A stretch of DNA of 64,000 bases from Actinomycetes bacterium (GCA_021844425.1 JAKBTL010000042.1:2133-66132), one strand, 5' to 3'. Shown: positions 8,236 through 48,007, counted from the first letter of the stretch. A program made the numbers and translations. The notes: generated from the letters alone by a model not told the origin.

Positions 8236-9254
8236 GCGCGACGGCCGTTGCGGCGACCACGAGGAAAGACTGGGCGAGCGACCAGGAGGTGCGCTGGTGC
8301 CCTGGGTGCGGCGACTACTCGATCCTCGCGGCGGTGCAGATGCTCCTCCCCGAGCTGGGCGTGCGACGTGAGAACACGGTGTTCCTTTCGGGGATCGGGT
8401 GCGCCGCGAGGTTCCCCTACTACATGTCCACCTACGGGATGCACTCGATCCACGGGCGTGCTCCGGCGATCGCGACGGGTCTCGCGACCACGCGCCCGGA
8501 CCTCGACGTGTGGGTCGTGACGGGCGACGGGGACGCCCTGTCCATCGGGGGGAACCACCTCATCCACGCCCTGCGGCGCAACGTGCGGATGACCATCCTC
8601 ATGTTCAACAACCAGATCTACGGTCTGACGAAGGGGCAGTACTCGCCGACGTCGGAGGTCGCGAAGGTCACGAAGTCCACGCCGTTCGGCTCCCTCGACA
8701 CGCCGTTCAACCCGGTCAGCCTCGCGCTCGGTGCCGAGGCCAGCTTCGTGGCGCGCACCCACGACATGGACCGCCAGCACATGCAGGAGACGTTCCGGCG
8801 GGCACACGAGCACGAGGGCGCGGCGTTCGTCGAGGTGTACCAGAACTGCAACGTGTTCAACGACGGCGCCTTCGAGAAGATCACCGGGCGAGAGGCCCGC
8901 AGCTCCATGCTGGTGCCGCTGGTGCACGGCGAGCCCATCCGCTTCGGAAAGGACTTGGACAAGGGCGTGGTCCAGCGACCCGACGGACGCCTCGAGGTCG
9001 TCGACGTGGCAGACGTCGGCGAGGACGCGCTCGTCGTCCACGACGAAGAGCGAGAGGATCCTGGGCTCGCGTTCGCCCTGTCGCGCCTTTCGAGGGGGCC
9101 GTACGAGCCGACGCCGATCGGGGTGTTCCGCGCGGTGCGCCGGCCCGAGTACGGCGCGTCCATGGCGGAGCAGCTGGCCGACGCCCAGGAGCGCCGCGGG
9201 GTCGGGGACCTGAAGGCGTTGCTGCGCTCCGGCGCGACCTGGACCGTCGCCTAA
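8232..9254 (+). CDS. korB: 2-oxoglutarate/2-oxoacid:ferredoxin oxidoreductase beta subunit (TPP-binding)
   Basis: ATG 8232 lies in frame inside track ORF 7737..9254. Motifs WCPGCGDYSIL and the TPP motif GDGDALSIGGNH. Confidence 0.85.
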   Translation: MSATAVAATTRKDWASDQEVRWCPGCGDYSILAAVQMLLPELGVRRENTVFLSGIGCAARFPYYMSTYGMHSIHGRAPAIATGLATTRPDLDVWVVTGDGDALSIGGNHLIHALRRNVRMTILMFNNQIYGLTKGQYSPTSEVAKVTKSTPFGSLDTPFNPVSLALGAEASFVARTHDMDRQHMQETFRRAHEHEGAAFVEVYQNCNVFNDGAFEKITGREARSSMLVPLVHGEPIRFGKDLDKGVVQRPDGRLEVVDVADVGEDALVVHDEEREDPGLAFALSRLSRGPYEPTPIGVFRAVRRPEYGASMAEQLADAQERRGVGDLKALLRSGATWTVA

Positions 9255-10480: not shown

Positions 10481-10503
10481 CGGCCGCCCGTAGACTGCAC
10501 TCA

Positions 10504-11205
10504 ATGGCGGACCCGGACCCTGTGCCCCACGCGCGACGCTCAGAGCCAGCCGGGGGGGAGCCGGGGCACAGCGCCGAAGACCGCGTCCTGACCCTCGCGA
10601 ACGTGGTCACCTCTATCCGGCTCCTCGGCGTCGGCGTGTTCCTGTGGCTGCTCTTCGGCCCTGGCGACCAGACCGCAGCGGCCGTCCTCCTCGCCGTCCT
10701 CGGCACCACCGACTGGGTGGACGGGCAGCTCGCCCGCCGCCTCCACCAGGTGTCGCGGATCGGCAAGGTGCTCGACCCGGCTGTCGACCGGGTGCTCGTC
10801 GGCGCTGCGGTCGTCGCCGTCATGGTGCACGGCGCGGTGCCCGTGTGGTTCGGCCTGCTCACGATCGCGCGGGAGGCGCTCGTCTCGGGCACGGTCGTCG
10901 TGCTGGCGGCGCTCGGGGCGCGGCGGATCGACGTACTGTGGATCGGCAAGGCCGGGACCTTCGGGCTGATGGTCGCCTATCCGGGGTTCCTCGTCAGCTA
11001 CGGCACCGCAGGGTGGCAGCAGCCGTTGCACGTCGCGGCCTGGGTCGCAGGGGCGGCGGGGATCGCGCTCGCCTGGGCAGCTGCCCTCGCGTACGTCGTG
11101 CCCGCCCGCCGCGCACTCGCAGAGGGCCGGGCGGGCCGCAGGCGGGACGGGGGAGCGCCCGGGGCGCGAGGATCGCTTCGAGAGCCCAGGGAGGTCGGCG
11201 CGTGA
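10504..11205 (+). CDS. CDP-alcohol phosphatidyltransferase family protein (phospholipid synthase)
   Basis: Complete family motif D-x2-DG-x2-AR-x8-G-x3-D-x3-D (DWVDGQLARRLHQVSRIGKVLDPAVD). Multiple TM stretches. Start at ATG 10504 is assumed. Confidence 0.8.
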   Translation: MADPDPVPHARRSEPAGGEPGHSAEDRVLTLANVVTSIRLLGVGVFLWLLFGPGDQTAAAVLLAVLGTTDWVDGQLARRLHQVSRIGKVLDPAVDRVLVGAAVVAVMVHGAVPVWFGLLTIAREALVSGTVVVLAALGARRIDVLWIGKAGTFGLMVAYPGFLVSYGTAGWQQPLHVAAWVAGAAGIALAWAAALAYVVPARRALAEGRAGRRRDGGAPGARGSLREPREVGA

Positions 11206-28615: not shown

Positions 28616-29584
28616 GTGACCCCAGGGTTTGCCGTCGTCGCGCCGAAGGCCGTCCAGGCGCTTCAGGTGCTGACGATCGTCGTCGGCGCCCCGCTCGTGA
28701 GCGGGGTGATCTCGCATGTCGAAGCGCGCCTGCAGGGACGGCGTGGCCCTCGGATCCTCCAGCCCTACTACGACCTCGCGAAGCTCTTCCGCAAGGAGAC
28801 GCTCGTCACCGACGAGTCGAGCTGGGTCTTCCTGGCGGCGCCGGTCGTCGCGTTCAGCTGCTACCTGATCGTGCCGCTGCTCATCCCGGTCCTCACGACG
28901 TACCCCCTGCCGCTCGGCTACATGGGCGACATCCTCGGCGGGGGCTTCGTGCTCGCGCTCGGCGGGTTCTCGGTCGCGCTCGCGGCTGCAGAGTCCGGGG
29001 CTCCGTACGCGCAGCTGGGCGCCAGCAGAGCGATGACGTTCGGCGCGCTGGTGGAACCGACGATCCTCTTCGTCGTCTTCGTGGTGGGCCTGATCACCAG
29101 CACCGATCTTCCCTACGCGCTCGCCGGAACCGTCCGCTCGTCGTCGGAGATCGTGCGGCCGGGCCATGTCCTCGCAGCCGTTGCATTCTTCCTCGTGGTG
29201 CTCGTGGACACCGGGCGGATCCCCGTGGAGACCCATACCGGGACCCTTGAGCTCGGCATGATCGACGAGGCGCGCACCCTCGAGCACTCTGGGCCCGCCC
29301 TCGCCCTCTTGCAGTGGGGATCGGCGATGAAGCAGCTGGTCCTCTACACGATCCTCATCAACGTGTTCGTCGCTCCCTTCGGCCTCTCCTCGAACGGCGC
29401 GCCAGGGTCGGTGGTCGGAGCGATCGGCGCGCTCCTCGGCAAGGCCGTGCTCCTCGGGCTCGTCTTCGCGGTGATCGACAACCTGTTCGCCAAGCTGCGG
29501 CTGTACAAGATCCCCGAGTTCCTGGCGGCGGCCTTCGGCATCGCGGTGCTCGCCGTCGTCGTCTTCTACGTGGGTCCTGCGTGA
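28616..29584 (+). CDS. HycD/HyfC (NuoH-like) membrane subunit of a group-4-hydrogenase-related complex
   Basis: The N-terminus QALQVLTIVVGAPLVSGVISHVEARLQGRRGPRILQPYYDLAKLF is collinear with the recalled E. coli HycD N-terminus. GTG 28616 is preceded by GGAGG; GTG 28604 is an alternative. Confidence 0.85.
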   Translation: MTPGFAVVAPKAVQALQVLTIVVGAPLVSGVISHVEARLQGRRGPRILQPYYDLAKLFRKETLVTDESSWVFLAAPVVAFSCYLIVPLLIPVLTTYPLPLGYMGDILGGGFVLALGGFSVALAAAESGAPYAQLGASRAMTFGALVEPTILFVVFVVGLITSTDLPYALAGTVRSSSEIVRPGHVLAAVAFFLVVLVDTGRIPVETHTGTLELGMIDEARTLEHSGPALALLQWGSAMKQLVLYTILINVFVAPFGLSSNGAPGSVVGAIGALLGKAVLLGLVFAVIDNLFAKLRLYKIPEFLAAAFGIAVLAVVVFYVGPA

Positions 29585-30252
29585 TGCCCGTCCACGTCCC
29601 CTCCACCACCGCAGGCGTCGAGGACGTCGTCGCGGTGCTCGTCTTGCTCACCGAGTTCGCGATGCTGCGGGGTCCGCTCCTGCGCTCCCAGGTGCGCCTG
29701 TACGCGTTCCAGTCGCTCGCGGTGAGCGTGCTCGCCGTCGTCGTCGCCGCGACGAGGCACCTGGCGGACATCTACGCGCTCGCCGGGCTCTCCTTCGTCT
29801 TGAAGGTGGTGATCGTCCCCGCAGTCATGACGCGGCTGCTCCGAGACGTCGACGTCGACCTCGCCGGCAGCTCGAAGCTGGGCGTGGCCAGCTCCATGCT
29901 GGTGGCGCTGGCGGTGTCGGTCTTCGGCTTCTTCGCCGTCGGGTCTCTCCACGTCCACTCCTCGCTCCTGCCGTCGACGACGCTGGCGGTCGCGTCCGCG
30001 GTCGTGCTGGTCGCCTTCGTGCTGATCGTGCTGCGCTCCGACGTGGTCTCCCAGGCGATGGGGTTCTTCTCGCTCGAGAACGGCGTGTCGATCGCGGGCC
30101 TGGTGATCGCCGCGGGGCTGCCGCTCGTCGTCGAGACGACGTTCCTCTTCGACCTGCTCGTCGCGGTGGTGGCCTTCGGGATCATCATCCGCGTCCATCA
30201 CGGCCGATCGAGGACCCTGTCCACCGACGAGCTCGACAGGCTGCGCGGGTAG
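29584..30252 (+). CDS. HyfE/HycP-like small membrane subunit
   Basis: 222 aa, polytopic. ATG 29584 overlaps the upstream stop (TGATG). Size and position match HyfE/mycobacterial HycP. Confidence 0.75.
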   Translation: MPVHVPSTTAGVEDVVAVLVLLTEFAMLRGPLLRSQVRLYAFQSLAVSVLAVVVAATRHLADIYALAGLSFVLKVVIVPAVMTRLLRDVDVDLAGSSKLGVASSMLVALAVSVFGFFAVGSLHVHSSLLPSTTLAVASAVVLVAFVLIVLRSDVVSQAMGFFSLENGVSIAGLVIAAGLPLVVETTFLFDLLVAVVAFGIIIRVHHGRSRTLSTDELDRLRG

Positions 30253-30260
30253 GAGGAGAG

Positions 30261-31811
30261 ATGGCTGCCTTGCTCGTCGTGCTGCTCGCCTTCCCGTTCG
30301 CCGTGGGCGTGGTTTCCTACCTGGTGCCGGTGCGGGTCTCCAAGGTCCTCGCGCCCGTGTCAGGGGCAGTCGCGTTCGCCCTCTCGATTGCCCTCGTGCC
30401 GGCGGTCCTCACCCACGGCCACATCACCGCAGGAAGCGAGCTGCGGGTCGACTCGCTGTCCGTGGTGTTCTTGATCGCCACCTCGTTCCTCTACCTCGCG
30501 ACCGCGATCTTCTCGGCGGGGTACCTGCATCTCGACAGCGGCCCGGCAGGCGCCCGCTACGGCCGGCGCTTCTACGCCGGCCTGAACGTCTTCTGCTGGG
30601 CGATGCTCGCCGCGCCGCTCGTGAGCGGTCTCGCGCTGCTGTGGGTCGCGATCGAGGTCACGACGGTGGTCTCCGCGCTGCTCGTCGCGATCGACGACAC
30701 CGAGACGGCGACCGAGGCTGCGTGGAAGTACGTGCTGATCGCCTCGATGGGGCTCGGCATCAGCCTGCTCGCGACGATCGTGCTCTACTACGCGGGGACC
30801 TCCGTCTTCGGGGCGGGCTACGACCTCTCGTACGCGAAGATGCTCGCAGCGGGGCACCACCTTCCCCCTGAGGTGCTGCGGCTCGCGTTCGTGCTCGCAG
30901 TGCTCGGCTACGGGACGAAGATGGGCCTCGTACCGGTGCACACGTGGCTTCCCGACGCGCACTCCGAAGCCCCGACCCCGGTGTCCGCGCTGCTCTCGGG
31001 GGCGCTGCTTGCGACCAGCTTCTACGCGATCCTCCGGTACTACCAGATCACGGCCGCGGCGATCGGCTCCGTCTTCCCTCGCAACGTCCTGCTGGTCTTC
31101 GGCCTCGCCTCCCTTCTTCTCGCGGCGCTCTACCTGCTGCGTCAGCGCGACATCAAGCGGATGCTCGCCTACTCGAGCATCGAGCACATGGGCGTCCTCG
31201 CCATCGGGGTGAGCTTCGGGGTGACGCTCGCGTTCATCGGCGTCCTCCTCCACGTCCTCGCGCACGCCGCCGCGAAAGGCACCGCCTTCTTCGGGGCGGG
31301 CTCGGTCGTGCGCAAGTTCGGGACGAAGGACATGGCGCTCGTGCGTGGAGGGGTGGGCGCGCTGCCATGGAGCGGCTCGATGCTCGTTGCCGCGGTGCTC
31401 GCCCTCTCCGCCATGCCGCCGTTCGGCCTGTTCAGGAGCGAGTTCCTCATCGTCTCAGGTGGGCTCTCCGATCCGCGCTACGCGGTCGCGGCGGTGCTCG
31501 TGGTCCTCGTGACGCTCGCCTTCGTGGGCCTCGGGTGGTCGACCACGCAGACCATGCTCACGACGGGGCCCGCGGACGCCGCGCTCGCCGCGGCGCCGCA
31601 CGCGACCCCGCACACCCCGCACGCCCCGCACGCCCCGCACGCCCCGCACGCCGCTGTCGTGTCATCTCGCGTGCGAAAAGGCGAGGTGAGCCCGTGGATC
31701 GTCCTCGCGATGGCGCTCGGCATCGCGGCGTTGGTGCTTCTCGGTGTCCACCTGCCTGCCGACCTCAGCAGGCTGCTCGACCATGCGGCGCACGAGCTGA
31801 GGACACCGTGA
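30261..31811 (+). CDS. HyfF/HycQ-like antiporter-type (NuoM/N, MrpD family) subunit
   Basis: AGGAGGAGAG directly upstream. Canonical motifs VHTWLPDAHSEAPTPVSALLSG, AYSSIEHMG, HVLAHAAAKG. PHA repeat near the C-terminus. Confidence 0.88.
   Translation: MAALLVVLLAFPFAVGVVSYLVPVRVSKVLAPVSGAVAFALSIALVPAVLTHGHITAGSELRVDSLSVVFLIATSFLYLATAIFSAGYLHLDSGPAGARYGRRFYAGLNVFCWAMLAAPLVSGLALLWVAIEVTTVVSALLVAIDDTETATEAAWKYVLIASMGLGISLLATIVLYYAGTSVFGAGYDLSYAKMLAAGHHLPPEVLRLAFVLAVLGYGTKMGLVPVHTWLPDAHSEAPTPVSALLSGALLATSFYAILRYYQITAAAIGSVFPRNVLLVFGLASLLLAALYLLRQRDIKRMLAYSSIEHMGVLAIGVSFGVTLAFIGVLLHVLAHAAAKGTAFFGAGSVVRKFGTKDMALVRGGVGALPWSGSMLVAAVLALSAMPPFGLFRSEFLIVSGGLSDPRYAVAAVLVVLVTLAFVGLGWSTTQTMLTTGPADAALAAAPHATPHTPHAPHAPHAPHAAVVSSRVRKGEVSPWIVLAMALGIAALVLLGVHLPADLSRLLDHAAHELRTP
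31596..31652. repeat. 9-bp tandem repeat, about 5-6 copies (ccccgcacg; PHAPHAPHAPHA)
   Basis: Read directly. In-frame in the HyfF-like gene. Confidence 0.85.
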
Positions 31812-33388
31812 ACGACGCCATGAAGACGTTGTGGTCATCGGCGCACGCGCAGCCAGCAGACGCCGAGGATGCGGGGGATGTCGCGGTCTTCCCTTCCACG
31901 CGCCAGCGCGTCGCCGCCGGCGCGCGCTTCTGCGGGCTCTTCGAGGGCTTCCGAGGCGCGGGCTCCCCAGGCGAGGGATCCCCAGGCGAGGGCTTCCGAG
32001 GTGCCGCCGGCGCGGCGCTGCTCGCGGTGGTGTCGTCGGAGGGAACGCTGTTCGTCGAAGAGGCGCGTCTCGACGCGGGGCGGAGGCCCAGGTACGAGTC
32101 GCTCACCCCGGCGACCCCGGCCGCAGGCTGGTACGAGCGGCGCCTGCGCGACCTGTTCGGCATCGAGCCGCTCGGCCACCCGCGGCTCGACCCGCTCTCC
32201 TTCCCCGTGCCCGCAGGCAGCGCCGCGCCGCGGGGGATCGGAGGCGACCCGATGGTCCCGATGACCCCCGACCCGAGCCCCCTGCCGGCGCACGTCCACG
32301 GCGAGGGCGTGTTCACCCTTCCCTACGGCCCGGTCCGCTCGGGCGTGTTCGAGGCCGTCGAGTACCTGGTGGAGACGTCGGGCGAGGACATCTCGCACCT
32401 CCGGACGCGCATCTTCTACAAGCACCGGGGGATCGAGGCGCGCTTCTGCGGCCTGGGCGTCGCGGACGGCGTGCTGCTCGCCGAGCGCGTCGAGGGCGTG
32501 GCGTCCGTCGCGCACGCCGTCGCCTTCAGCCAGGCGATCGAGCAGATCGGCGACGTCGCGGTCCCGCTCGAGGCGCAGCTCGTCCGCGTCGTGCACGCCG
32601 AGCTCGAGCGTGTCGCGAACCACCTGGACACCATGGTCCGCCACACCGAGGCGGCGGGACAGGCGGTGGCCTACGCCGTGCTCTCGCACCACAAGGAGCG
32701 GGTCCAGCGGCTCCGGGCACGGCTTTCCGGCAGCCGCTTCGGAAGGGGGGTGGTCGTGCCGGGCGGTGTCATCAGGCCGCTGCGGCTCCGCCCGTCAGAG
32801 GTGCTGGCGACCCTGACCTCGCTCGAGCGGGAGATCGACGAGGACGTCCGCCGGCTGATGGACACCCCGTCCTTCGTGGACAGGCTGCGGGGGACCGGAG
32901 TGCTCGCGCATAGCGACGCGCGCCGGTTCGCGGTCGTCGGCCCGGTCGGGAGGGCCTCGGGGCAGTCGGAGGACGTCCGCACCAGCCGTCCCTACGGCGC
33001 CTACCAGCGTCTCGGGCAGCGGATCTTCGAACCCCACGAAGAGGGCGACGCCTTGGCGCGCCAACGCGTCCGCATCGCCGAGATCGCCGGCGCGTTCCAC
33101 CTGGTGCGCCAGGCGGTCGACCTGCTCGACGAGCTCGGGGAGCCGCAGCGCTGGCGTGCCGGTGTCCCTGCGGTGACCGGCCGGTCGATCGGGTGGGCGG
33201 AGGCGCCGCAAGGCGAGCTGCTCTACGTCGTCGAGGCGGCCGAGGGGCGCCTCGTGCAGGTGAGCCAGCGCTCCGCGTCGTTCCACAACCTCGCCGCGTA
33301 CCCGGCGGCCTTCCCGAAGGACATCTTCACCGACGTGGCCTTCATCGAGGCCAGCTTCGGGCTCTCGATCGCAGGGGCGGCCGGCTGA
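31808..33388 (+). CDS. HycE-like NuoC-NuoD fusion ('large subunit') lacking NiFe cysteine ligands
   Basis: GTG 31808 overlaps the upstream stop; ATG 31820 is an alternative. NuoC-like WYERRLRDLFGIEPLGHP. NuoD/HycE-like LPYGPVRSG...RIFYKHRGIE...ERVEGVASVAH. C-terminus FIEASFGLSIAGAAG. Confidence 0.85.
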   Translation: MNDAMKTLWSSAHAQPADAEDAGDVAVFPSTRQRVAAGARFCGLFEGFRGAGSPGEGSPGEGFRGAAGAALLAVVSSEGTLFVEEARLDAGRRPRYESLTPATPAAGWYERRLRDLFGIEPLGHPRLDPLSFPVPAGSAAPRGIGGDPMVPMTPDPSPLPAHVHGEGVFTLPYGPVRSGVFEAVEYLVETSGEDISHLRTRIFYKHRGIEARFCGLGVADGVLLAERVEGVASVAHAVAFSQAIEQIGDVAVPLEAQLVRVVHAELERVANHLDTMVRHTEAAGQAVAYAVLSHHKERVQRLRARLSGSRFGRGVVVPGGVIRPLRLRPSEVLATLTSLEREIDEDVRRLMDTPSFVDRLRGTGVLAHSDARRFAVVGPVGRASGQSEDVRTSRPYGAYQRLGQRIFEPHEEGDALARQRVRIAEIAGAFHLVRQAVDLLDELGEPQRWRAGVPAVTGRSIGWAEAPQGELLYVVEAAEGRLVQVSQRSASFHNLAAYPAAFPKDIFTDVAFIEASFGLSIAGAAG

Positions 33389-34239
33389 TGCCCTGGATCC
33401 CCCGCGGCCTGCGTCACGGCATCGTGACGAGCGGCTACCCGAAGCGTCCCGACGGGTACGGTCCCGGCTTCTTCGGGCACGTCGAGGTCGCGCCCGCCCG
33501 CGGCGACGGTCCCGAGGCGCTCGCCCGCGGCGACGGTCCCGAAGCGCTCGCCGCGGCGGTGGACGAGTGCCCCACCGGCGCGATCACGTTCGACGGCGAC
33601 GTGGTGCGGCTGGACCGCGGGCGGTGCATCCTGTGCGGCCGCTGCGTGGCGCTCGCCCCGTCGACGTTCCGTGCCGACCCGGGCTTCGAGACGGCTGGCC
33701 ACGGCCGGCGCGCGCTCGTGGTGCCGGCGGCCGAGGACGACGACGCGGCGCTGGCGGAGACCCGGGCGCGGCTCGCCCGGCGGGTCCGCGGGCTGCGCCG
33801 CTCCGTCCACGTCCGTCATGTCGACGCCGGATCGGACGGCGCAGAGGAGTGGGAGGTGGCGGCGCTGACCAATCCCGTCTACGACGTCCAGCGCCTCGGG
33901 GTCTTCTTCACCGCGAGCCCCAAGCACGCGGACGTGCTGCTCGTCACCGGCATCGGCACGGCGGGCATGGAGTCCCCGCTCCGCCAGACCTACGACCTGA
34001 TGCCCGAGCCCAAGGTGGTGGTCGCCGCCGGGGTCGACGCCGCGAGCGGCGGCATGGTGCATGCGGGCTACGCCGCGCGCGGCGGGGTTGCCGGGTTCAT
34101 CCCCGTGGACGTGTACGTCCCGGGCTCCCCGCCGAGTCCCTTCGGCATCCTCCACGGCATCTTGGAGGCTGTGGGGATCCTCGGCTCGCGCCGGCACATC
34201 GGCGCGGAGGGCCCGAAGGATGAGGCGGGCGCCCGATGA
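33388..34239 (+). CDS. Ferredoxin-like domain fused to a NuoB/HycG-like 'small subunit' lacking cluster cysteines
   Basis: ATG 33388 overlaps the upstream stop. N-terminal ECPTGAI...CILCGRCVALAP. The C-terminal part is collinear with HycG (PVYDVQRLGVFFTASPKHADVLLVTG, PEPKVVVAAG, PVDVYVPGSPPSP). Confidence 0.85.
   Translation: MPWIPRGLRHGIVTSGYPKRPDGYGPGFFGHVEVAPARGDGPEALARGDGPEALAAAVDECPTGAITFDGDVVRLDRGRCILCGRCVALAPSTFRADPGFETAGHGRRALVVPAAEDDDAALAETRARLARRVRGLRRSVHVRHVDAGSDGAEEWEVAALTNPVYDVQRLGVFFTASPKHADVLLVTGIGTAGMESPLRQTYDLMPEPKVVVAAGVDAASGGMVHAGYAARGGVAGFIPVDVYVPGSPPSPFGILHGILEAVGILGSRRHIGAEGPKDEAGAR
33497..33550. repeat. 27-bp tandem repeat x2 (ARGDGPEAL x2)
   Basis: Read directly. In-frame, with one substitution. 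Confidence 0.9.
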
Positions 34240-36392
34240 CCGCCGCGCTCATCGTGGCCGCGCTCGCCTGTCTGCTCGCCGGCGCTGCGGTCGACCTGGG
34301 TCTCGGGACGCGCTGGGCCATGGTGCGCGCGCTGCCATACCTGCTCGGCGCTGTAGGCAGCGCCTGTCTGCTCGCGGTCGGGATCCACGCGACGCTCTCT
34401 CGCACGCCGACCACCATCGGCATCGCGCCGCTCTTCGACGTGGCGCGCGGCGCGTTGCGAGTGGACCCGCTCGCCGGGCTCTTCCTGACGCTCATGTTCG
34501 GGATCGGCCTGGCGGTGTCCTTGTGCTTCGCCTCGTGGGCGTGGTCGGACGCCGGAAGGGCGCACCGCCGAGCGGTCGCGACCGGCTACCTCACGCTCCT
34601 CGCCTCGGTGGCGGTGGTGGTGTGCGCGGCCGACGCGTTCGTCTTCCTCTTCGCCTGGGAGGCGCTGACGGTCTCCTTCTACCTGCTGACGTCGGCGCAG
34701 CGGGGGAGCGAGCGCCAGGCGCGCGCCCCGTGGATCACGGCGGGCATCGGGAAGCTGAGCGGAGCGAGCCTGCTGTTCGGCTTCCTGCTCCTGGCGGGCC
34801 GCACCCACAGCTTGGCGATCGCGAGCTGGTCGCACGTCGGCCCCGGCGGGCTGCACGACGTCGCGTGGGTGCTCCTCCTGGTCGGCTTCGCCGCCAAGCT
34901 CGGCGTGGTGCCGTTGCAGGTCTGGATCCCGGTCGGCTACCCGGCCGCGCCGGGGCCGTCCCGTGCCGCGATGGCGGGGATCGCCGCCAACGTCGGCGTC
35001 TACGGCCTCTGGCGCTTCCTCGGCGTCCTCGGACGACCACCGGTGTGGCTGGTGATCGTCGTCTTGCTTGCCGGAGGGGTCACCGCGTTCCTCGGCATCC
35101 TCTTCGCGGGCGTGCAGTCGCGCCTCAGCCGCGTGGTGGCGTACTCGAGCGTCGAGCAGGCCGGGATCATCCTCGTCGCCTACGGCGTGGCGCTCACCGG
35201 GGTCACCGTCGGCTCGACGACTCTGGAGGTGGTCGGCCTCCTCGCCGCTTCGCTCCAGGTGGTGGCCCACGCCGTCGCGAAGTCCACGGTGTTCTGCTCG
35301 CTCGCGTTCGCCGAAGCCGAAGCGGGGACCGACGACCTCGACGCGCTGCGCGGCGCGGGTCGCCGCCTGCCGTGGAGCGGCGCGGCGTTCGGGGCTGGCG
35401 CCCTGGCGCTCGCGGGGCTCCCGCCGACGATCGGCTTCGTCTCGGAGTGGTTCGTGCTCGAGGCGCTCATGCAGCAGTTCCGTCTGGGGGGGCTCGCGTT
35501 GCGTCTCGGCCTCGCAGGGGCCGGGGCGCTCGTCGCGCTGACCACCGGGCTCGCCGCCCTCGCGTTCGTCCGCGTCCTCGGCCTCACGTTCCTGGGCCGC
35601 CGGATTGACTCGACTGCCTCGGTGTCGGTGTCGGTGTCGCCGTCGTCGGTGTCGCCGTCGTCGGTGTCGCCGGTGTCCGCGTCGGCTGCGCCGGCGTCGA
35701 GTGCGGCGACGCGAGCCGGGGACGCCGGCGTGCTCGGACGGGTCGGTCTCGTCGCGCTGACGCTCGGGTGCCTAGGGATCGCTGCGGCGAGCCCCTGGGA
35801 GGTCCGGTTCCTCGGGCACGGGCTCGCGCCGCTCGTGCCGCGAGCCGGCGTGCTGGGGGCGCTCAAGTCCCCATGGGTGCTCCAGCCCGTCTACCAGGGG
35901 TTCTCCATCCTCTCGCCGTCGTGGCTGTGGGTCGTCCTGCCGTTCGCGTGCGTGGGCGCCTTCGCGATGGCGATGCTCTTGTCGAGGGGGCGCTACGTGC
36001 GGGTCCGCCGGGTGCCGGCGTGGCGCTCCGCCACCGCGGGGGTGGCCGGCCGGTCGTCGTACACGGCGTTCGGTTTCGCGAACCCGCTGCGCCACGTGCT
36101 TGCCAACGTGCTCGCGACGGAGCGGATCCGTCGTGTCCGACCGGTGGTCGCAGGGATGTCCGTCGCGGGCGAGGCGGAGAGCCGTCTGCAAGAGGGAACG
36201 AGCGTCCACGTCGAGTCGGAGACGAGAGTCGTCGAGCCGGTCGAGGCGTACCTCTACCGGCCGGCGTGGAGGCTGGCCGTCGCGGTGGCCGACGCAGCAC
36301 GCCGGCTGCAGTCGGGGTCGCTCAACGCCTACGTTGCCTACATGCTGGTCGCGCTCCTCATCGCGCTCGCGGTCACGGCGGCACTGCGATGA
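34236..36392 (+). CDS. HycC/HyfB-like (NuoL-type) antiporter-like subunit
   Basis: 718 aa. ATG 34236 overlaps the upstream stop (ATGA). AYSSVEQAG, HAVAKS. The C-terminal SYTAFGFANPLRHV region is typical of HycC/HyfB. Confidence 0.85.
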   Translation: MTAALIVAALACLLAGAAVDLGLGTRWAMVRALPYLLGAVGSACLLAVGIHATLSRTPTTIGIAPLFDVARGALRVDPLAGLFLTLMFGIGLAVSLCFASWAWSDAGRAHRRAVATGYLTLLASVAVVVCAADAFVFLFAWEALTVSFYLLTSAQRGSERQARAPWITAGIGKLSGASLLFGFLLLAGRTHSLAIASWSHVGPGGLHDVAWVLLLVGFAAKLGVVPLQVWIPVGYPAAPGPSRAAMAGIAANVGVYGLWRFLGVLGRPPVWLVIVVLLAGGVTAFLGILFAGVQSRLSRVVAYSSVEQAGIILVAYGVALTGVTVGSTTLEVVGLLAASLQVVAHAVAKSTVFCSLAFAEAEAGTDDLDALRGAGRRLPWSGAAFGAGALALAGLPPTIGFVSEWFVLEALMQQFRLGGLALRLGLAGAGALVALTTGLAALAFVRVLGLTFLGRRIDSTASVSVSVSPSSVSPSSVSPVSASAAPASSAATRAGDAGVLGRVGLVALTLGCLGIAAASPWEVRFLGHGLAPLVPRAGVLGALKSPWVLQPVYQGFSILSPSWLWVVLPFACVGAFAMAMLLSRGRYVRVRRVPAWRSATAGVAGRSSYTAFGFANPLRHVLANVLATERIRRVRPVVAGMSVAGEAESRLQEGTSVHVESETRVVEPVEAYLYRPAWRLAVAVADAARRLQSGSLNAYVAYMLVALLIALAVTAALR
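35621..35680. repeat. 6/15-bp tandem repeats (SVSVSVSPSSVSPSSVSPVS)
   Basis: Read directly. In-frame in a loop of the HyfB-like subunit. Confidence 0.85.
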
Positions 36393-36838
36393 GCGCGGCC
36401 GGAGGAGGGCCGCCGCGCGCTCGTGCCTTCCGGCGCATCCTCGTGGGCTACGACGGGTCGAGGGAGGCGCAGGATGCGCTGCGAACCGCGGTCGCGCTGG
36501 CTGAGGAGGTCGACGGCGACGTGCGCGTGCTTCTCGTGGTCCGCCCGCCCGCGCACGTCGAGACGCCCGAGGAGCTCGCGAGTGCCGCGTCGGCCGAACG
36601 CGACAACCTGTCGCAGGGCCTCGAAGCCCTTCTCCGCCCGGGACTCGGGCGAGTGCCCGAGACGCGCGTAGTCTTCGCCGACGACCCCGCCCGCGCGATC
36701 GCGGAGCACGCGGAGGTCCACGGCTTCGACCTCGTCGTCGTGGGGTGCCACGGGCGGGAGCGGGCGACCCACCGCGGCATCGGCCAGGCGCTCGAGTCGC
36801 TGTTGCGGCACCATCCCTGCCCGGTGCTGGTGGTCTGA
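36389..36838 (+). CDS. Universal stress protein (UspA family)
   Basis: ATG 36389 overlaps the HyfB-like stop (ATGA). RILVGYDGSREAQDAL ... DLVVVGCHGR ... GIGQALESLLRHHPCPVLVV. Confidence 0.8.
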   Translation: MSAAGGGPPRARAFRRILVGYDGSREAQDALRTAVALAEEVDGDVRVLLVVRPPAHVETPEELASAASAERDNLSQGLEALLRPGLGRVPETRVVFADDPARAIAEHAEVHGFDLVVVGCHGRERATHRGIGQALESLLRHHPCPVLVV

Positions 36839-36907: not shown

Positions 36908-38815
36908 TCAGCTGCGGGGACCCCGGCCCTGGGGTGCGCCCAGCTCGGTGCTCGAGAGCTGCTCGGCCTGGCGTGCGAGGCACATGGTTCGGGCGCGCTC
37001 GGCTTCTCTCGCCGCCTGCTCGGACTCGGTCGACTCGAGTGCGTGCTGCGCACTCGACGCCGCCGCGATGATGGAGGCCTCGGTCTCCTCGAGCTCTGCG
37101 GTCATCGCGGCGACGAACCGCCGTGACACCGTGTCGAGACGCTGCACGACGTCGAATCGGGCGCGTCCCGCGTGCTTGTCGAGCTCCGAGACGAGCCGTC
37201 GGTGCGCCCGGTCGAGCATCGCACGGCGGGACCGCTCCGTCGGAAGGACCGTCCGAACGGCGCGTGCGAGCGAGGAGCCGGGGCTCTCCACCTGCAAGAA
37301 CAGGTACGAGAAGCGCTCGCGTTGCTCGGCGACCGTCGGGAGGACCGCTTCGGGGAGGTGCACTTCGAAGAGGGCGCTCGCCGCCGTGCGCAGCGACTGG
37401 ACCTGCTGGCGCAGCTTGCCCGCGAACGCTTCCGCGGACCGCGCCCAGCCCTCGTCCGCCGTCTCCTCGACCGCATGGCGCAACGGGTCGAAGGCGTCGG
37501 TGACCGCGCGGTCCACAGCGTCGTCGAGCGCGCGGTCGAGGGCGCGGCCGCGAAGACCTGCCACGGACTCCTCGACGCTGGGCCAGGCACGTCGAGCCAC
37601 CTCGGCCGCGCCTGCGGCGAGCGCGGCGCCCACCGCCTCTGCGATCTGTGCGACGTCGTGGTCGAGCACGAGCCGGCTGGCTGCGAGCTCGCGCCGCACG
37701 TCGTCCGCAGCCGCGCGGAACCGCTCGAGCCGCTCTTTCAGCGCGGCGAGGTCGAAGGTGGCTGCCGCCCGCTCGATGGCGACGGTCTCCGAGAGGGCCG
37801 CGGCCAGCCGGCCGAGCTCCGCGGCGCCTGCCCGCTCTCGCTCGGCGGCGAGGTCGTCGCGCAGGAACGCCTCCAGGTCGCCCCTGAACGCGTCGAAGCC
37901 CGGGTCGCCTGGCGCGCCCGTCCCGCCCGCCTCGCCTGGCGCGCCCGTCCCGCCCGCCTCGCCTGGCGCGCCCGTCCCGCCCGCCTCGCCTGGCGCGCCC
38001 GTCCCGCCCGCCTCGCCTGGCGCGCCCGGAGCGTCGGTCCCGCCCGCCGGGAACAGCGCGTCGAGGGCTCGGCGCGCCGAGAGGAAGTAGACCTCAGCGT
38101 GCTCGCCGAGCAGCCGTGCGAGGTGGCCGCTCAAGTAGCTGCGAACCTCTGCGAGCTCGTGCGCGACGAGGTGGTCGCACTTGTTGACCGCGACGAACAC
38201 CCGTCCGCCGCGGTCGGCGAGATCGGCGAGAAGGCTCTCTTCCTGCTCGGAGAGTGGGGCGTCGACGGACAGGACCACGACCGCTCCGTCGCTGTCGGAG
38301 AGCGCCTCTTTAGCTGCAAGGGTGTGCTGCTCGCTCACCGACGCGACGCCGGGGGTGTCGACGAGCACCACGCCCTGGGCCCCGAGGGGCGTGTCGACGT
38401 GCACCTCGACGCGCCTGACGCCCAGCCGGTTGGCGGGGTTGTCCCGCTCGCTCACGTAGCGCGCGAGCTCGCTCAGAGGAAGCTCGCGGCTCGTGGCGTC
38501 GTCGAAGACCACGCGCAGTCCCGGGTGCGGGTGCGCGAAGTGGACCTCGGTTGCGACGGAGGTGACGGGGACGACGCCCGTGGGGAGGACCGGCGCGCCG
38601 ATCAGGGCGTTCACGAGCGTGGACTTGCCGCGTTTGAACTCGCCGAGCACCGCGATGTGGTAGCGCTGGGCCTCGGAGCGCTCCGCGAGCCGCAGTGCTC
38701 GCTCGGCGAACGCGGCTGGCTGGTCCCCGAGCGCAGCCATCTCACGGGCGAGCGACGCGACCGTCGTGCTCGGTCGTGGGCTGGCTGGCATAGGTTCCTC
38801 CCGCCGGTGCTGCAC
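36908..38815 (-). CDS. Bacterial dynamin-like GTPase
   Basis: G1 GEFKRGKST, G3 LVDTPG, G4 NKCD. Long alpha-helical Ala/Arg/Glu-rich stalk. ATG 38791 is an alternative start. Confidence 0.8.
   Translation of the reverse strand: MQHRREEPMPASPRPSTTVASLAREMAALGDQPAAFAERALRLAERSEAQRYHIAVLGEFKRGKSTLVNALIGAPVLPTGVVPVTSVATEVHFAHPHPGLRVVFDDATSRELPLSELARYVSERDNPANRLGVRRVEVHVDTPLGAQGVVLVDTPGVASVSEQHTLAAKEALSDSDGAVVVLSVDAPLSEQEESLLADLADRGGRVFVAVNKCDHLVAHELAEVRSYLSGHLARLLGEHAEVYFLSARRALDALFPAGGTDAPGAPGEAGGTGAPGEAGGTGAPGEAGGTGAPGEAGGTGAPGDPGFDAFRGDLEAFLRDDLAAERERAGAAELGRLAAALSETVAIERAAATFDLAALKERLERFRAAADDVRRELAASRLVLDHDVAQIAEAVGAALAAGAAEVARRAWPSVEESVAGLRGRALDRALDDAVDRAVTDAFDPLRHAVEETADEGWARSAEAFAGKLRQQVQSLRTAASALFEVHLPEAVLPTVAEQRERFSYLFLQVESPGSSLARAVRTVLPTERSRRAMLDRAHRRLVSELDKHAGRARFDVVQRLDTVSRRFVAAMTAELEETEASIIAAASSAQHALESTESEQAAREAERARTMCLARQAEQLSSTELGAPQGRGPRS
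37905..38027. repeat. 27-bp perfect tandem repeat, about 4.6 copies (GAPGEAGGT units) inside the dynamin-like gene
   Basis: tcgcctggcgcgcccgtcccgcccgcc repeated from 37905. In-frame. Confidence 0.95.
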
Positions 38816-38851
38816 CTCGACAGGAGCTATCAGCCGTGATGGCGGTCGGTG

Positions 38852-38982
38852 GCGAGCTCCATCGCCGACGTCAGTCTACGTCTTCGGCACCGCGCACCGG
38901 CGATGCAGGCAGGCTCCACAGGCCCGGCCCCGTGCGACGCGCGACTCGGTAGGATCATGCAAGGAACGGCGATGGAGCTCGC
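38852..38982. promoter_or_regulatory. Perfect 15-bp inverted repeat pair (gcgagctccatcgcc / ggcgatggagctcgc) in the divergent promoter region
   Basis: Arms at 38852-38866 and 38968-38982, 101 nt apart, between the dynamin-like and MutS-like genes. Confidence 0.5.
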
Positions 38983-39077
38983 TGCACCGCCCTCGGGCCG
39001 CACCGGCCTCGGGCTGATGGCTCCTACTGACCGCTGGCGGCCTTCGGCCGCGATGCCGGCGAGAAGGGGAGTGGTGC

Positions 39078-40664
39078 ATGGGACCAGAGCGTGGGGAGAG
39101 CTTGGCAGCGTTCGACCTTCTCGCCCCGGCGCCCGTCCAGCACGGCGATGCCCAGCACGGCGATGCCCAGCACGGCGATGCCCAGCACGGCGACGTCGAC
39201 CGGCGTGATCACGCGCGCGATCTCCACCTCGACCAGATCGTCTCGGCCATCACGCGCGACGACGACACGCTCGAGACGTGGTACTTCACGCGTACGCGTG
39301 ACGTCGCGACGGTGCAGCACCGCCACGAGGTGTTCGGGGACCTCGAGGACTCCGGCGTGTGGGCTGCGGTCGGGGAGCTCTGCGCGTCGCTGCGGGAGGT
39401 CGTCTCCCATCTTGCCCAGGCGCGCGCCATGCGAGTGGCGCAGCAGCGCCAGGCCTGGACGCTCGACGCCGCGGCGATCTACTGCGCCGCCGTCCGGAAG
39501 CTGACAAAGGAGCTCGGCGGGGCGCCGCTCGCCTCGCGAGGGCTGCAGGACTTCCGACGGTACCTCGAGGCCTACGCGGGCTCCGAGGCATTCGAGCGGC
39601 TCGAGGCCGAGACCACCGAGTGCAAGGACGCGCTGGCTGGGGTCTCGTACTGCGTGCAGATCGACGGCGGGCGGGTGACCGTCCGGCGAACTGCCGGAGA
39701 GGCGGACTACAGCGAGGAGATCCAGTCGGTGTTCGAGCGGTTCCGCCAAGGTGCCGTGCGCAGGTACCTCATCGACTACAGGATGTGGCCCGGCATGACG
39801 AGGGTGGGCGAGCAGATCCTGGCGCTCGTGGTGAGGCTGTTCCCCGACGAGTTCTCGCTCCTCGCGGTGCACTTCGAGCGGCACGGAGGCTTCCTCGACC
39901 CCGGCGTCCATCGCTTCTACCGCGAGCTGCAGTTCTACGTGTCCTACCGCGAGCACATCGACCCGATGCGAGCGGCGGGGCTCACCTTCTGCTACCCCGA
40001 GGTGGACGCGCAGTCCAAGGAGGAGCTCGCAGAGGACACCTTCGACCTCTCGCTCGCCTCGATGCTCCTCGCCGAGGGGGGAACGGTCGTCACGAACGAC
40101 CTCCGGCTCGATCCGGGCGAGCGGATCTTCGTCGTCTCCGGGCCGAACCAGGGTGGCAAGACCACCTTCGCCCGGACCTTCGGGCAGCTCCACCATCTCG
40201 CTGCCATCGGGGTGCCGGTGCCCGGTCGGCGTGCGAGGCTCTACCTGTGCGACCGGATCTTCACCCACTTCGAGCGTGAGGAGGAGCTCTCCACCCTGAC
40301 GGGGAAGCTCGAGACGGACCTGGTCGAGATGCAGCGGACCCTGCGCAGCGCGACCCCCAGAAGCGTCGTGATCATGAACGAGGTGTTCTCCTCCACGTCG
40401 CTCGAAGACGCCCGGTTCCTCGGCACCGAGGCCATGCGGTGCCTCGTCGACCTCGACTGTCTCGCCGTCTACGTGACCTTCATCGACGAGCTGGCGTCGT
40501 TCGCTCCCTCGGTGGTGTCCATGATCTCGACGATCGTGCCCGAGGACCCGGCGACCCGCACCTTCAAGGTGGTGCGCGCACCGGCGAACGGGCTCGCCTA
40601 CGCGCTCTCGCTCGCGCAGAAGCACCGGCTCACCTACCCCCAGCTCCTCGAGCGCATCTCGTGA
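39078..40664 (+). CDS. MutS-family ATPase (domain V only, no mismatch-binding domain), paralogue 1
   Basis: Walker A GPNQGGKTTF. Walker-B-equivalent VVIMNEVFSSTS. The MutS TH motif position reads TF. C-terminal GLAYALSLAQKHRL resembles MutS SYGIxVAxLAG. Confidence 0.8.
   Translation: MGPERGESLAAFDLLAPAPVQHGDAQHGDAQHGDAQHGDVDRRDHARDLHLDQIVSAITRDDDTLETWYFTRTRDVATVQHRHEVFGDLEDSGVWAAVGELCASLREVVSHLAQARAMRVAQQRQAWTLDAAAIYCAAVRKLTKELGGAPLASRGLQDFRRYLEAYAGSEAFERLEAETTECKDALAGVSYCVQIDGGRVTVRRTAGEADYSEEIQSVFERFRQGAVRRYLIDYRMWPGMTRVGEQILALVVRLFPDEFSLLAVHFERHGGFLDPGVHRFYRELQFYVSYREHIDPMRAAGLTFCYPEVDAQSKEELAEDTFDLSLASMLLAEGGTVVTNDLRLDPGERIFVVSGPNQGGKTTFARTFGQLHHLAAIGVPVPGRRARLYLCDRIFTHFEREEELSTLTGKLETDLVEMQRTLRSATPRSVVIMNEVFSSTSLEDARFLGTEAMRCLVDLDCLAVYVTFIDELASFAPSVVSMISTIVPEDPATRTFKVVRAPANGLAYALSLAQKHRLTYPQLLERIS
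39137..39194. repeat. 15-bp tandem repeat, about 3.9 copies (QHGDA units) at the N-terminus of MutS-like 1
   Basis: ccagcacggcgatgc repeated. In-frame. Confidence 0.9.
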
Positions 40665-42235
40665 AGGCGCACCTCCTTTACCCGGATCGGGACTTCGACG
40701 TCGCGGCCGAGCCGGTCTCCCAGCACGACGATCTCGAGCGCGATCTCGAGCTCGGCGTCGTCCTTCGGGCGATGGCCGGAGGCGACCGGTACCTCTTCGA
40801 CGTGTCGAGGAAGGTGATCCTCGAGGGCCTCGACGACGCTGCGGTGGTGCGCTATCGCCAGGCCGTGTTAGCAGACTGCATCGCCAATGAAGAGACGGTT
40901 CGCGAGCTCTACGCGCTCGTGATCGCGGCGCTCGAGGACAAGCGCGGCATCTGGGGCATTCGCTCGACCACCTCGACGTCGGTCCTCCTGCACGGCGCGG
41001 TCGCGCAGCTCGAAGCGTTCGCCGCTCGGCTGGCGCAGCTGCGAGCGCTCGCCGACGCGCACGCAGAAGATGTTCGCTCCGAAGGGTTCAAGAGCCTCTT
41101 CGACTCGGTGCGCCGTGACCTCGACGACGAGTACCTCGACGTCCTGCGCACGCACCTGCGCCAGCTCCAGTTCCGAGGCGGGGTGCTCCTCAGCGCACGT
41201 CTCGGCCGCGACGCGACGGGCGTCGACTACGTCTTGCGTTCCCCTTCGACCACGCGGACGCGCTGGCGCGAACGCGTGGGCCTCGCGCCGCGGACCTCCT
41301 ACTCGTTCACTATCCCGCCGCGCGACGAGGCGGCGGGCAACGAGCTGGCCGACCTCACGAACCGGGGGCTGAACCACGTGGCGAACGCGGCGGCCCAGTC
41401 GGCGGACCACGTGGAGAGCTACTTCACGATGCTCCGCCTGGAGCTCGCGTTCTACGTGTCGTGCCTGAACCTCCGGGCCGCGCTCGTAGAGCGGGGAGCG
41501 CCGTTGACCTTCCCCGAGCTCCGGGAGCGCGCGCCGGCGCACGACCCGACGCGCGAACCGACGCGCGAACCGGCACACGAGCCGGCGCGCGAGCCAGTGC
41601 ACTTCTCGTGCTCGGACCTGCGCGACGTGTCGCTCAGCCTCCAGACCTCCGAGCCGGTGGTGGGCAACGACGTCGAGGCGGACGGGCGGCCGCTGGTCGT
41701 CGTCACCGGGGCGAACTCGGGAGGCAAGACCACCTTCCTGCGCAGTGTGGGGCTCGCGCAGCTGATGGCGCAGTGCGGCATGTTCGTGACCGCCTCCTCG
41801 TTTCGGTCGAGCCTTCGAAGCGGCGTCTTCACCCACTTCGGCAGGGAGGAGGACGCCTCGATGCGCAGCGGGCGCCTGGACGACGAACTTCGCCGGATGG
41901 ACGCCATCGTGGACGCCGCGCGCCGCGGTGCCCTCGTCCTCTTCAACGAGTCGTTCTCGGGGACCAACGAGCGGGAGGGCTCGGAGATCGGCCGCCAGGT
42001 GGTCCAGGCCCTCTTGGAGCGTGACATGACCGTGTTCTTCGTGACGCACCTCTTCGATCTCGCAGACGGGTTCCGCAGGTCGAGGCCGGAGACCACCCGG
42101 TTCTTGCGCGCCGAGCGGGCCGCCGACGGCGCTCCGACCTACGCGCTGGTGCCTGCAGACCCCCTGCCGACCAGCTTCGCGGTCGATGTCTACCGCAGGA
42201 TCGGGAGCTTCGACTCCGCGGCTGCCCGACCCTGA
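40661..42235 (+). CDS. MutS-family ATPase (domain V only), paralogue 2
   Basis: GTG 40661 overlaps the upstream stop (GTGA). Walker A GANSGGKTTF. LVLFNESFSGTN. VTHLFDL retains the TH motif. Confidence 0.8.
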   Translation: MKAHLLYPDRDFDVAAEPVSQHDDLERDLELGVVLRAMAGGDRYLFDVSRKVILEGLDDAAVVRYRQAVLADCIANEETVRELYALVIAALEDKRGIWGIRSTTSTSVLLHGAVAQLEAFAARLAQLRALADAHAEDVRSEGFKSLFDSVRRDLDDEYLDVLRTHLRQLQFRGGVLLSARLGRDATGVDYVLRSPSTTRTRWRERVGLAPRTSYSFTIPPRDEAAGNELADLTNRGLNHVANAAAQSADHVESYFTMLRLELAFYVSCLNLRAALVERGAPLTFPELRERAPAHDPTREPTREPAHEPAREPVHFSCSDLRDVSLSLQTSEPVVGNDVEADGRPLVVVTGANSGGKTTFLRSVGLAQLMAQCGMFVTASSFRSSLRSGVFTHFGREEDASMRSGRLDDELRRMDAIVDAARRGALVLFNESFSGTNEREGSEIGRQVVQALLERDMTVFFVTHLFDLADGFRRSRPETTRFLRAERAADGAPTYALVPADPLPTSFAVDVYRRIGSFDSAAARP

Positions 42236-42298
42236 CCGCGGCTTGCCCGACCCTGACCGCGGCTTGCCCCACCCTGACCGCGGCTTGCCTGCGTCTGA
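42216..42298. repeat. 20/21-bp tandem repeat x4, each unit ending in TGA; the first unit contains the real stop of MutS-like 2
   Basis: ccgcggct(t)gcccgaccctga repeated. Units 2-4 are 21 nt, so the TGAs stay in the gene frame. Confidence 0.9.
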
Positions 42299-47485: not shown

Positions 47486-48007
47486 GTGGAGGTGGCTACA
47501 GGCGGAACGAGTGAAGACGTCGTCGACGTGATCGTGGAGATCCCAGCGGGCAGCAGGAACAAGTACGAGTACGACCACGATCGGCACCTGATCCGTCTCG
47601 ACCGCAGGCTCGCGACCGCGACGAGCTACCCGACGGACTACGGCTTCGTGCCTGACACGCTGGCGCTCGACGGTGATCCGCTGGACGCGCTGGTGATCCT
47701 CGACGACCCGACCTTCCCGGGCTGCCTGGTGCGCGTCCGGGTCATCGGTGTCTTCCAGATGCGCGACGAGAAAGGAATGGACGCGAAGCTGCTGACCGTG
47801 CTCGAGCACGACCCGATCCGCGCCGACACCACCGACGTCTCGGACTTGGCACCCCAGTTGCTGGATGAGATCGCGCACTTCTTCAGCGTGTACAAGGCGC
47901 TGGAGCCTGGGAAGGAGACCCAGACGATGGGGTTCTTGGGGCGGGAGGCGGCGCTCGAGGAGCTGCGAGTGTCTCGTGAGCGGTTTCGCCGCCAGGCGGC
48001 GCACTGA
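47486..48007 (+). CDS. ppa: Inorganic pyrophosphatase (family I)
   Basis: VEIPAGSRNKYEYD, YPTDYGFVP.T...DGDPLDALV. Confidence 0.92.
   Translation: MEVATGGTSEDVVDVIVEIPAGSRNKYEYDHDRHLIRLDRRLATATSYPTDYGFVPDTLALDGDPLDALVILDDPTFPGCLVRVRVIGVFQMRDEKGMDAKLLTVLEHDPIRADTTDVSDLAPQLLDEIAHFFSVYKALEPGKETQTMGFLGREAALEELRVSRERFRRQAAH

Follow-up and report, generated by a model that had tools for sequence, protein, structure and literature searches.

A MutS4A/MutS4B ATPase pair behind a predicted fluoride riboswitch and beside a dynamin-like GTPase in an actinomycete genome

Introduction

In this study, we examine two overlapping ATPase genes in a stretch of 64,000 nucleotides from an Actinomycetes bacterium (GCA_021844425.1, JAKBTL010000042.1:2133-66132), here called the window, with positions counted from its first letter. 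The genes, at 39078..40664 and 40661..42235 on the plus strand, can be assigned by sequence to the MutS4A/MutS4B subfamily, and because they sit behind a fluoride riboswitch next to a gene for a dynamin-like GTPase, they are best read as belonging to a fluoride-stress response rather than to ordinary mismatch repair. The two proteins probably form an asymmetric heterodimeric clamp of the MutS type that is induced by fluoride, works with the dynamin-like protein and does not initiate mismatch repair. Neither component is new in itself: the family was already known in 2007 and the link between ‘mutS’ genes and the crcB motif in 2010, so that ‘mutS’ genes behind fluoride riboswitches have been on record since then, with no function assigned in the searchable literature. 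An earlier note, made from the window's sequence, had anticipated the asymmetric heterodimer and the dynamin link, and had missed both the named family and the two fluoride riboswitches.

The MutS4A/MutS4B subfamily

MutS4A (open reading frame (ORF) A) begins with an ATG, immediately 5' of which stands GAGAAGGGGAG, and encodes 528 aa; MutS4B (ORF B) begins with a GTG and encodes 524 aa. The four letters GTGA at 40661-40664 are common to both ORFs, the GTG start of B overlapping the TGA stop of A, which agrees with the earlier description of two overlapping genes for proteins of about 525 aa. The proteins are paralogues with 30% identity across their C-terminal 209 residues (E 2e-21). In Pfam searches, MutS_V is the sole domain of A (E 8.6e-18) and of B (E 1e-20), both proteins lacking MutS_I, II, III and IV as well as Smr or any nuclease domain, and the predicted structures likewise show neither domain I or II nor a nuclease. 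The profile search proposed in the earlier note thus returned MutS_V and not MutS_III, and its statement that domain I, Smr and nuclease domains are missing is borne out. Against NCBIfam, both proteins give only partial, far sub-threshold matches, to the MutS1 model TIGR01070 (64-69 bits for the pair; cut-off 641.7), the MutS2 model TIGR01069 (56-77 bits; cut-off 400) and the KamC model NF052383 (37 and 77 bits; cut-off 300). A search for defence systems with PADLOC gave only matches of P-loop length for B (DndD, PbeC, PtuA; E ≥ 2.8e-4) and none for A, and this assignment was rejected.

The earlier note had treated the pair as unplaced. By sequence, it belongs to MutS4A/MutS4B, since it is ATPase-only, consists of overlapping A and B genes and falls into separate A and B clades. 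MutS4 was defined as proteins with the MutS ATPase domain only, encoded by adjacent MutS4A and MutS4B genes in which A ends in a stop codon that overlaps the start codon of B; its carriers were five bacterial species (including Thermoanaerobacter) and two archaeal species, and its patchy spread was ascribed to horizontal transfer (Lin, Nei and Ma 2007, PMC2190696). The present pair shows no structural difference from that description, which makes no mention of an Asn-Glu (N-E) Walker B motif, a TF/TH asymmetry, a riboswitch or a dynamin linkage. As for the possibility, raised beforehand, that the pair would fall into a characterised subfamily with an assigned function, the subfamily does have a name but no assigned function.

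In a tree of ATPase domains, MutS4 stands apart from MutS1 plus MutS2 (support 100/99), and the window proteins lie inside an A clade (98/98) and a B clade (94/96), respectively. The phylogenetic placement called for in the earlier note therefore puts A and B into clades of their own, distinct from MutS1 and MutS2; the connection to the MutS4 of Lin et al. is made in this tree by the Thermoanaerobacter pair (L026), 46% identical to A, and not by their original reference sequences. Judged from this tree, A and B are two ancient sister clades, and the branching within each does not follow taxonomy.

Relatives number more than 7,000 for each protein among the matches listed, with 924 clusters at the 50% identity level (E ≤ 1e-30). 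We recovered 80 named loci, with 45-57% identity across ~480 residues, from Actinomycetota, Chloroflexota, Dormibacterota, Pseudomonadota, Acidobacteriota, Thermoanaerobacter, Bathyarchaeota, Thaumarchaeota and others; our census covers 82 sources, including the window and a second pair from the same genome, together with one genus. A precedes B in 80 of the 82 sources, an arrangement kept far beyond chance, and a 4-nt stop/start overlap (ATGA or GTGA) occurs in 69 of 74 intact pairs. Within the window's own genus, 13 of 16 other genomes carry MutS4A; it was not found in any of eight other genera of the family, and 16 other families of the order yielded one distant match (36% identity). On these sequence comparisons, MutS4 is a patchy, cross-phylum accessory family. 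One 1026-aa A-B ‘fusion’ (P0273; L088 6001-9081, on a metagenome contig) was rejected as proof of a heterodimer and is best explained by an assembly frameshift: its residues ~417-500 have no match to the C-terminus of A and resemble an out-of-frame read-through of the window ORF 40439-42235. The L088 locus is without fluoride-type neighbours.

Probably non-equivalent ATP sites

All of the Walker A, Walker B and His-loop motifs quoted in the earlier note are present in the two proteins. Walker A reads GPNQGGKTTF in A and GANSGGKTTF in B, and Walker B reads VVIMNE in A (N434-E435) and LVLFNE in B (N429-E430). The His-loop is YVTFIDEL in A, with a TF in which F468 occupies the place of the histidine, and FVTHLFDL in B, which retains TH (T462-H463). 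Moreover, the signature motif is TGKLE instead of STF in A and SGRLD in B, and the exchange is family-wide, S-T-F giving way to G-K-L in A and to G-(K/R)-L in B.

The Walker B Asn is no alignment artefact, an outcome that the earlier note had named as refuting: in HMMER alignments, N434 of A stands opposite D693 of E. coli MutS, and in B N429-E430 stands opposite the Walker B D-E, and T462-H463 opposite the TH, in both Taq MutS and T. thermophilus MutS2. The top PDB sequence match for A is itself the engineered D693N mutant of E. coli MutS (3k0s). Furthermore, N434, E435 and F468 are invariant among 74 A sequences, and N429 and H463 among 73 B sequences, where conservation is 90% or more for E430 and T462. 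The obligate heterodimer with non-equivalent ATP sites proposed beforehand looks right in view of the constant gene order, the frequent overlaps and the invariant Phe/His split.

Two known systems invite comparison. Eukaryotic MSH heterodimers and heterodimeric ABC proteins likewise pair two paralogous subunits whose composite ATP sites are non-equivalent, but the MSH proteins have mismatch-binding domains and retain D-E and TH in each subunit, whereas in MutS4 the His gives way to Phe in one subunit only. E. coli MutS D693N (3k0s, PMC2857095) shares the Asp-to-Asn state; there it is an engineered single change in a mismatch-binding homodimer, whereas the Asn of MutS4 is natural, invariant and accompanied by an altered signature (STF to GKL or GRL).

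Predicted fluoride riboswitches at MutS4 loci

The 262-nt divergent spacer between MutS4A and the GTPase gene holds two predicted fluoride riboswitch aptamers (RF01734), each directly upstream of its gene. That in the 5' leader of MutS4A lies at 38959..39033 on the plus strand (Rfam 38.5 bits; 52.8 bits with our own covariance model, built from 16 RF01734 hits), and that in the 5' leader of the dynamin-like gene lies at 38814..38875 on the minus strand (Rfam 39.4 bits; own model 53.2 bits), the Rfam gathering score being 34. The MutS4A aptamer ends 44 nt 5' of the ATG, and the 5' strand of its P3 stem is complementary to GGGGAGUGGUGC, which covers the Shine–Dalgarno (SD) sequence up to the AUG. 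The P3 stem-loop of this aptamer is enlarged by a 16-nt x 1.9 tandem duplication (38984-39014), and the element still scores above the gathering score.

The association extends across the family, in archaeal as well as bacterial phyla, where the fluoride-regulon neighbours recur too. Our model detected 144 aptamers within 1.29 Mb of MutS4 loci; one stands directly upstream of A in 48 of 80 loci, and 68 of 80 have at least one. Several loci without an A-adjacent aptamer carry it ahead of an enolase or GTPase gene that points the same way and continues into A. In the genome to which the window belongs (3.0 Mb), five RF01734 elements exceed the threshold, all of them at its two MutS4 loci: two in the window and three on another contig (C133).

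That contig (locus L007) carries the second MutS4 pair, A2 at 9551-11251 and B2 at 7995-9554, both on the minus strand with a 4-nt overlap and with the same N-E and TF/TH motifs. An aptamer precedes A2 (11274-11334, minus strand). Two further aptamers at this locus, at 11491-11549 and 12814-12872, have as targets a His_Phos_1 (phosphoglycerate-mutase-like) gene, followed by a gene that looks Nudix-like by eye, and a 147-aa ORF that by eye resembles a universal stress protein (USP). A weakly matching DUF6062 gene (7031-7756) is found downstream of B2, with an Ehr-type module converging on it.

No CrcB/Fluc gene was detected in this genome, which is 92% complete; it has one CLC-family gene (C127:4378-5379, L119), with no aptamer nearby. 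With every detectable fluoride riboswitch at a MutS4 locus and no CrcB channel found, the MutS4 module may hold a central, not a peripheral, place in the fluoride response of this organism.

The ligand of the crcB motif is said to have been identified as fluoride by Baker and colleagues in 2012. Weinberg et al. (2010, PMC2864571) had listed genes ‘involved in DNA repair (mutS)’ downstream of the motif, together with formate hydrogen lyase genes. Enolase, pyrophosphatase and Na+/H+ antiporters are fluoride-regulon members too. The MutS4 loci resemble this regulon in having the aptamer in the 5' leader and in that ‘mutS’ is among the downstream classes of 2010, although the riboswitch papers did not identify their ‘mutS’ as MutS4A/B. 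MutS goes unmentioned in a 2024 review of fluoride resistance, and no paper joining fluoride, riboswitch and dynamin was found in the searchable literature.

The dynamin-like GTPase

The divergent gene lies at 36908..38791 on the minus strand (longest ORF to 38815). Its product passes the Dynamin_N cut-off (1e-27; 97.6 bits against 27) and is predicted to have a long helical stalk after the GTPase domain. The probable start is the ATG at 38791, behind GGGAGGA, giving 627 aa; the longest ORF, from the GTG at 38815, would overlap the aptamer.

The divergently placed dynamin-like neighbour pointed out in the earlier note proves recurrent, and the neighbourhood survey it suggested shows both conserved pairing and dynamin linkage across the 82 sources. 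In 32 of them the pair has a dynamin-like gene no more than 8 kb away, and in 19 this gene is immediately adjacent to A or B (< 400 nt); at three loci (L018, L041 and L087) it shares bases with the start of A or with the end of B. Several of the GTPases at MutS4 loci are fused to DUF6062. Within the genus, the GTPase is present in 12 of 13 MutS4A-positive genomes, usually on the same contig, and in none of 27 related genomes without a close MutS4A copy. In a Stellaceae metagenome-assembled genome (L075 7938-15575), two dynamin-like genes, one with DUF6062, stand between MutS4A and MutS4B; stop and start codons overlap at both ends of this insertion, and the locus has an extra aptamer at 12280-12349.

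Proposed mechanism

We propose that, when cytoplasmic fluoride rises, the aptamers would fold and free the SD regions (GGGGAG for A and GGGAGGA for the GTPase), whereupon A, B and the GTPase would be produced together. A and B would then assemble into a 1:1 asymmetric heterodimeric clamp, in which the P-loop site of B, with its His kept, would be hydrolytic, and that of A, with its Phe, a degenerate, slow and regulatory ATP-binding site. At both sites, Asn in place of the Mg2+-coordinating Asp should weaken Mg2+ binding, leaving ATP binding largely independent of Mg2+ and turnover strongly dependent on free Mg2+. A nucleoside triphosphatase (NTPase) tuned in this way would be suited to working when Mg2+ is complexed by fluoride and MgFx phosphate mimics arise. 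The likely job would be that of an ATP-gated clamp on a substrate under fluoride stress, together with the dynamin-like protein; a nucleic acid or a nucleoprotein is the favoured substrate because of the lever-and-clamp fold.

The model for the Asn sites is the E. coli D693N mutant, which has a lower Mg2+ affinity (Lebbink et al. 2010, PMC2857095). Its ATP binding is ~15-fold weaker than that of the wild type in Mg2+, and is equal in Mg2+ or ethylenediaminetetraacetic acid; its ATPase activity is kept and rises steeply with Mg2+ concentration, with no stimulation by DNA, and repair is only partly active (PMC2857095).

Several points weigh against this proposal. The heterodimer is predicted from synteny and motifs, the riboswitch assignment at these leaders is a computational one, and the fluoride-tolerance role of the family has so far been read from sequence context. 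The rationale connecting Asn with Mg2+ and fluoride draws on a single E. coli mutant. The one published functional test (Kim et al. 2017) gave more homologous recombination, pointing towards DNA, and the clamp region has few conserved basic residues. At 32 of 80 loci no aptamer stands directly upstream of A, though many of these have A inside a longer aptamer-bearing operon. The minimum free energy fold of the A leader is no better than those of shuffles (z = -0.6), and such folding was abandoned as a way of defining the expression platform. Finally, the GTPase translation keeps canonical G motifs, by eye, so that rewiring of metal sites is not module-wide; Asn as a general fluoride-proofing of the module was accordingly dropped, and the idea applies to MutS4 alone.

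A more far-reaching version is tentative, with the odds against it: MutS4A/B, the dynamin-like GTPase and DUF6062 might constitute a dedicated fluoride-stress NTPase machine outside DNA repair, in which the Asn and GKL changes keep the ATPase cycling, or sense the condition, under Mg2+ sequestration and MgFx mimics. If true, this would be the second non-repair role of a MutS paralogue, after that of MutS2 in ribosome rescue, and the fluoride regulon's ‘mutS’ genes would have their first function. The analysis joins three threads, namely the MutS4 subfamily, the ‘recombination’ island of M. yongonense and the fluoride regulon, and it offers handles for work in the invariant Walker B Asn of both subunits, the one degenerate His-loop and the operon coupling to the GTPase.

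Gene neighbourhoods of MutS4 pairs

To describe the neighbourhoods, the ORFs of the 82 sources were clustered and representatives annotated, and neighbours were counted as the sources carrying them. After the dynamin-like GTPase (32 sources), the most frequent were an MFS transporter (24) and a complex-I/hydrogenase-like (Ehr-type) module with NuoH, Proton_antipo_M, HycE-like and Oxidored_q6 components (~23, within 8 kb). Enolase followed with 18 sources, USP with 17, DUF6062 also with 17 (free-standing or as a C-terminal fusion to the dynamin-like protein), CBS-DUF190 with 16 and CrcB with 15. A protein of ~140 aa without a family match was present in 13 sources, often between enolase and MutS4A; His_Phos_1 in 12, a Na+/H+ exchanger in nine and NUDIX in six completed the set. 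The recurrent neighbours are classical fluoride-regulon classes.

NCBIfam and Pfam scans of the ~140-aa protein, of DUF6062 and of a HEAT-repeat protein gave no functional name. Examples of the DUF6062 and ~140-aa accessory families are found at L029 7676-8497, L061 5076-7691 and L047 7272-7700.

Alternative explanations

The AlphaFold models, with pLDDT (predicted local distance difference test) scores of 88.8 for A and 85.9 for B, begin at the core domain and comprise a helical core with levers, a small beta-hairpin ‘clamp’ and the ATPase. Foldseek aligned ~480-590 columns to MutS, MSH and MutS2 structures. In a first alternative, the pair is a MutS2/RqcU-like sensor and splitter of stalled or collided ribosomes, induced as fluoride-metal complexes poison translational GTPases. 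MutS2 is indeed the closest architecture: MutS2/RqcU of B. subtilis and T. thermophilus likewise lacks domains I and II and consists of core, clamp and ATPase; the T. thermophilus core is the best target-normalised match (TM (template modelling) score 0.62 by target length), the top Foldseek match of B is the collided-disome structure of B. subtilis MutS2 (7qv3), and TIGR01069 is the top NCBIfam match for B. That match, however, reaches 77 bits against a cut-off of 400, and MutS2/RqcU differs in being a homodimer with canonical D-E and TH and with KOW and Smr domains, neither of which the pair has; in the tree it groups with MutS1. Moreover, the annotated neighbour clusters include no recurring ribosome-associated gene. 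We consider a ribosomal role unlikely.

A second alternative makes the pair a mismatch-repair or recombination factor that replaces missing canonical systems as a DNA clamp, its fluoride control reflecting DNA damage. The fold of MutS core, clamp and ATPase would fit, as would the proposal by Weinberg et al. (2010, PMC2864571) of a DNA-damage link for the crcB motif. The search for nucS, mutL and mutS1 that the earlier note recommended also came back empty: the 92%-complete genome shows no MutS_V gene beyond MutS4 (and hence neither MutS1 nor MutS2), neither MutL nor NucS_C was detected, and the MutL model TIGR00585 finds only sub-threshold GHKL-type matches of 22.9 and 18.8 bits. The absence of NucS says little about the pair, because no more than 35 of the 61 genomes sampled from the order carry NucS_C. 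Furthermore, seven of the eight other MutS4 carrier genomes have full-length MutS1, and three of these have MutS2; MutS4 is therefore, as far as gene content tells, an accessory module and not a substitute for mismatch repair. For the same reason, and with the family spread across phyla, the setting offered by the earlier note, that of a MutS relative in a phylum lacking MutS and MutL, does not hold up as an explanatory context.

Experimental support for a DNA role comes from the Type I MutS4 operon of M. yongonense, which lies on a 13-gene island taken from non-mycobacterial actinobacteria (Kim et al. 2017, PMC5742357). M. smegmatis with this operon gave 55 rpoB recombinant colonies against 22, of which 75% against 31% were confirmed (PMC5742357); this was a single small heterologous experiment without fluoride. 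The island has the same A/B overlap and holds enolase, an ‘NADH dehydrogenase complex’, a hydrogenase subunit and MutS4A/B; Kim et al. (PMC5742357) read the pair as a driver of recombination and left fluoride unmentioned, whereas in our comparison this content matches the fluoride-riboswitch regulon. Against a repair function also stand the lack of mismatch-recognition domain I or II, of a MutL partner and of a nuclease, and the absence of any DNA-repair or DNA-metabolism family among the recurrent neighbour clusters annotated. Within the order, MutS4A is mostly confined to one genus (13 of 16 congeners against one 36% match in 24 other genomes), unlike core repair. A role in repair or recombination thus appears improbable.

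A third alternative casts the pair as a KamC-like reactivase or chaperone, or as a membrane partner of the dynamin-like protein, that frees fluoride-poisoned Mg2+ enzymes such as enolase or assembles and repairs the Ehr-type complex. KamC, the reactivase ATPase of lysine 5,6-aminomutase, shows that the target of a MutS_V ATPase need not be DNA, and B scores 77.3 bits with its model against 77.2 with that of MutS2. Additionally, enolase lies directly upstream in one operon at several loci (e.g. L068 and L047), the Ehr-type module is a frequent neighbour, and the tightly linked GTPase is of a membrane-remodelling type. The KamC score nevertheless falls far under its cut-off of 300, no lysine-aminomutase genes are found among the annotated neighbours of the pair, co-regulation in a riboswitch regulon need not mean interaction, and the lever-and-clamp architecture is the MutS means of encircling a polymer. 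We give this explanation a small chance at most.

Lastly, a decaying or inactive pseudo-ATPase pair without a present function, which the non-canonical Walker B and signature motifs, the His-loop of A and repeat insertions in both genes might suggest, is highly improbable given residues invariant in 73-74 sequences from many phyla at 45-57% identity over ~480 residues, the 924 clusters of relatives, an intact Walker A and catalytic Glu, confident structure models and the confinement of the repeats to non-conserved loops. The fluoride-induced heterodimeric clamp remains the preferred reading.

Other features of the window

Upstream of the pair, a hydrogenase-like (Ehr-type) operon includes a Proton_antipo_M gene at 34236-36392 and has at its end a USP-domain gene at 35768..36838 on the plus strand. 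This operon and the USP gene (28616-36838) represent the neighbourhood class seen at ~23 MutS4 loci; no aptamer was detected upstream of the operon, either at the Rfam gathering score or with our own model. On the other side, the context includes a gene for inorganic pyrophosphatase, a classical fluoride target, at 47486..48007 on the plus strand, upstream of which no aptamer was detected within the window.

The extreme tandem-repeat instability that the earlier note ascribed to the window is real insofar as repeats are present in A, in B, in the GTPase gene and after B, but they are incidental. They are perfect or near-perfect, and the in-frame inserts in A, B and the GTPase all fall in non-conserved loops. 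In A, a perfect 15-nt x 3.8 repeat (39137..39193, plus strand) encodes (QHGDA)n in the non-conserved N-terminus of low pLDDT. In B, a 12-nt x 5.8 repeat (41527..41595, plus strand) encodes a PTREP/AHEP insert that is absent from homologues. A 21-nt x 3.6 repeat (42216..42289, plus strand) starts at the end of B and continues past its stop codon, and the GTPase gene contains a (GAPGEAGGT)x4 repeat insert at 37898-38028.

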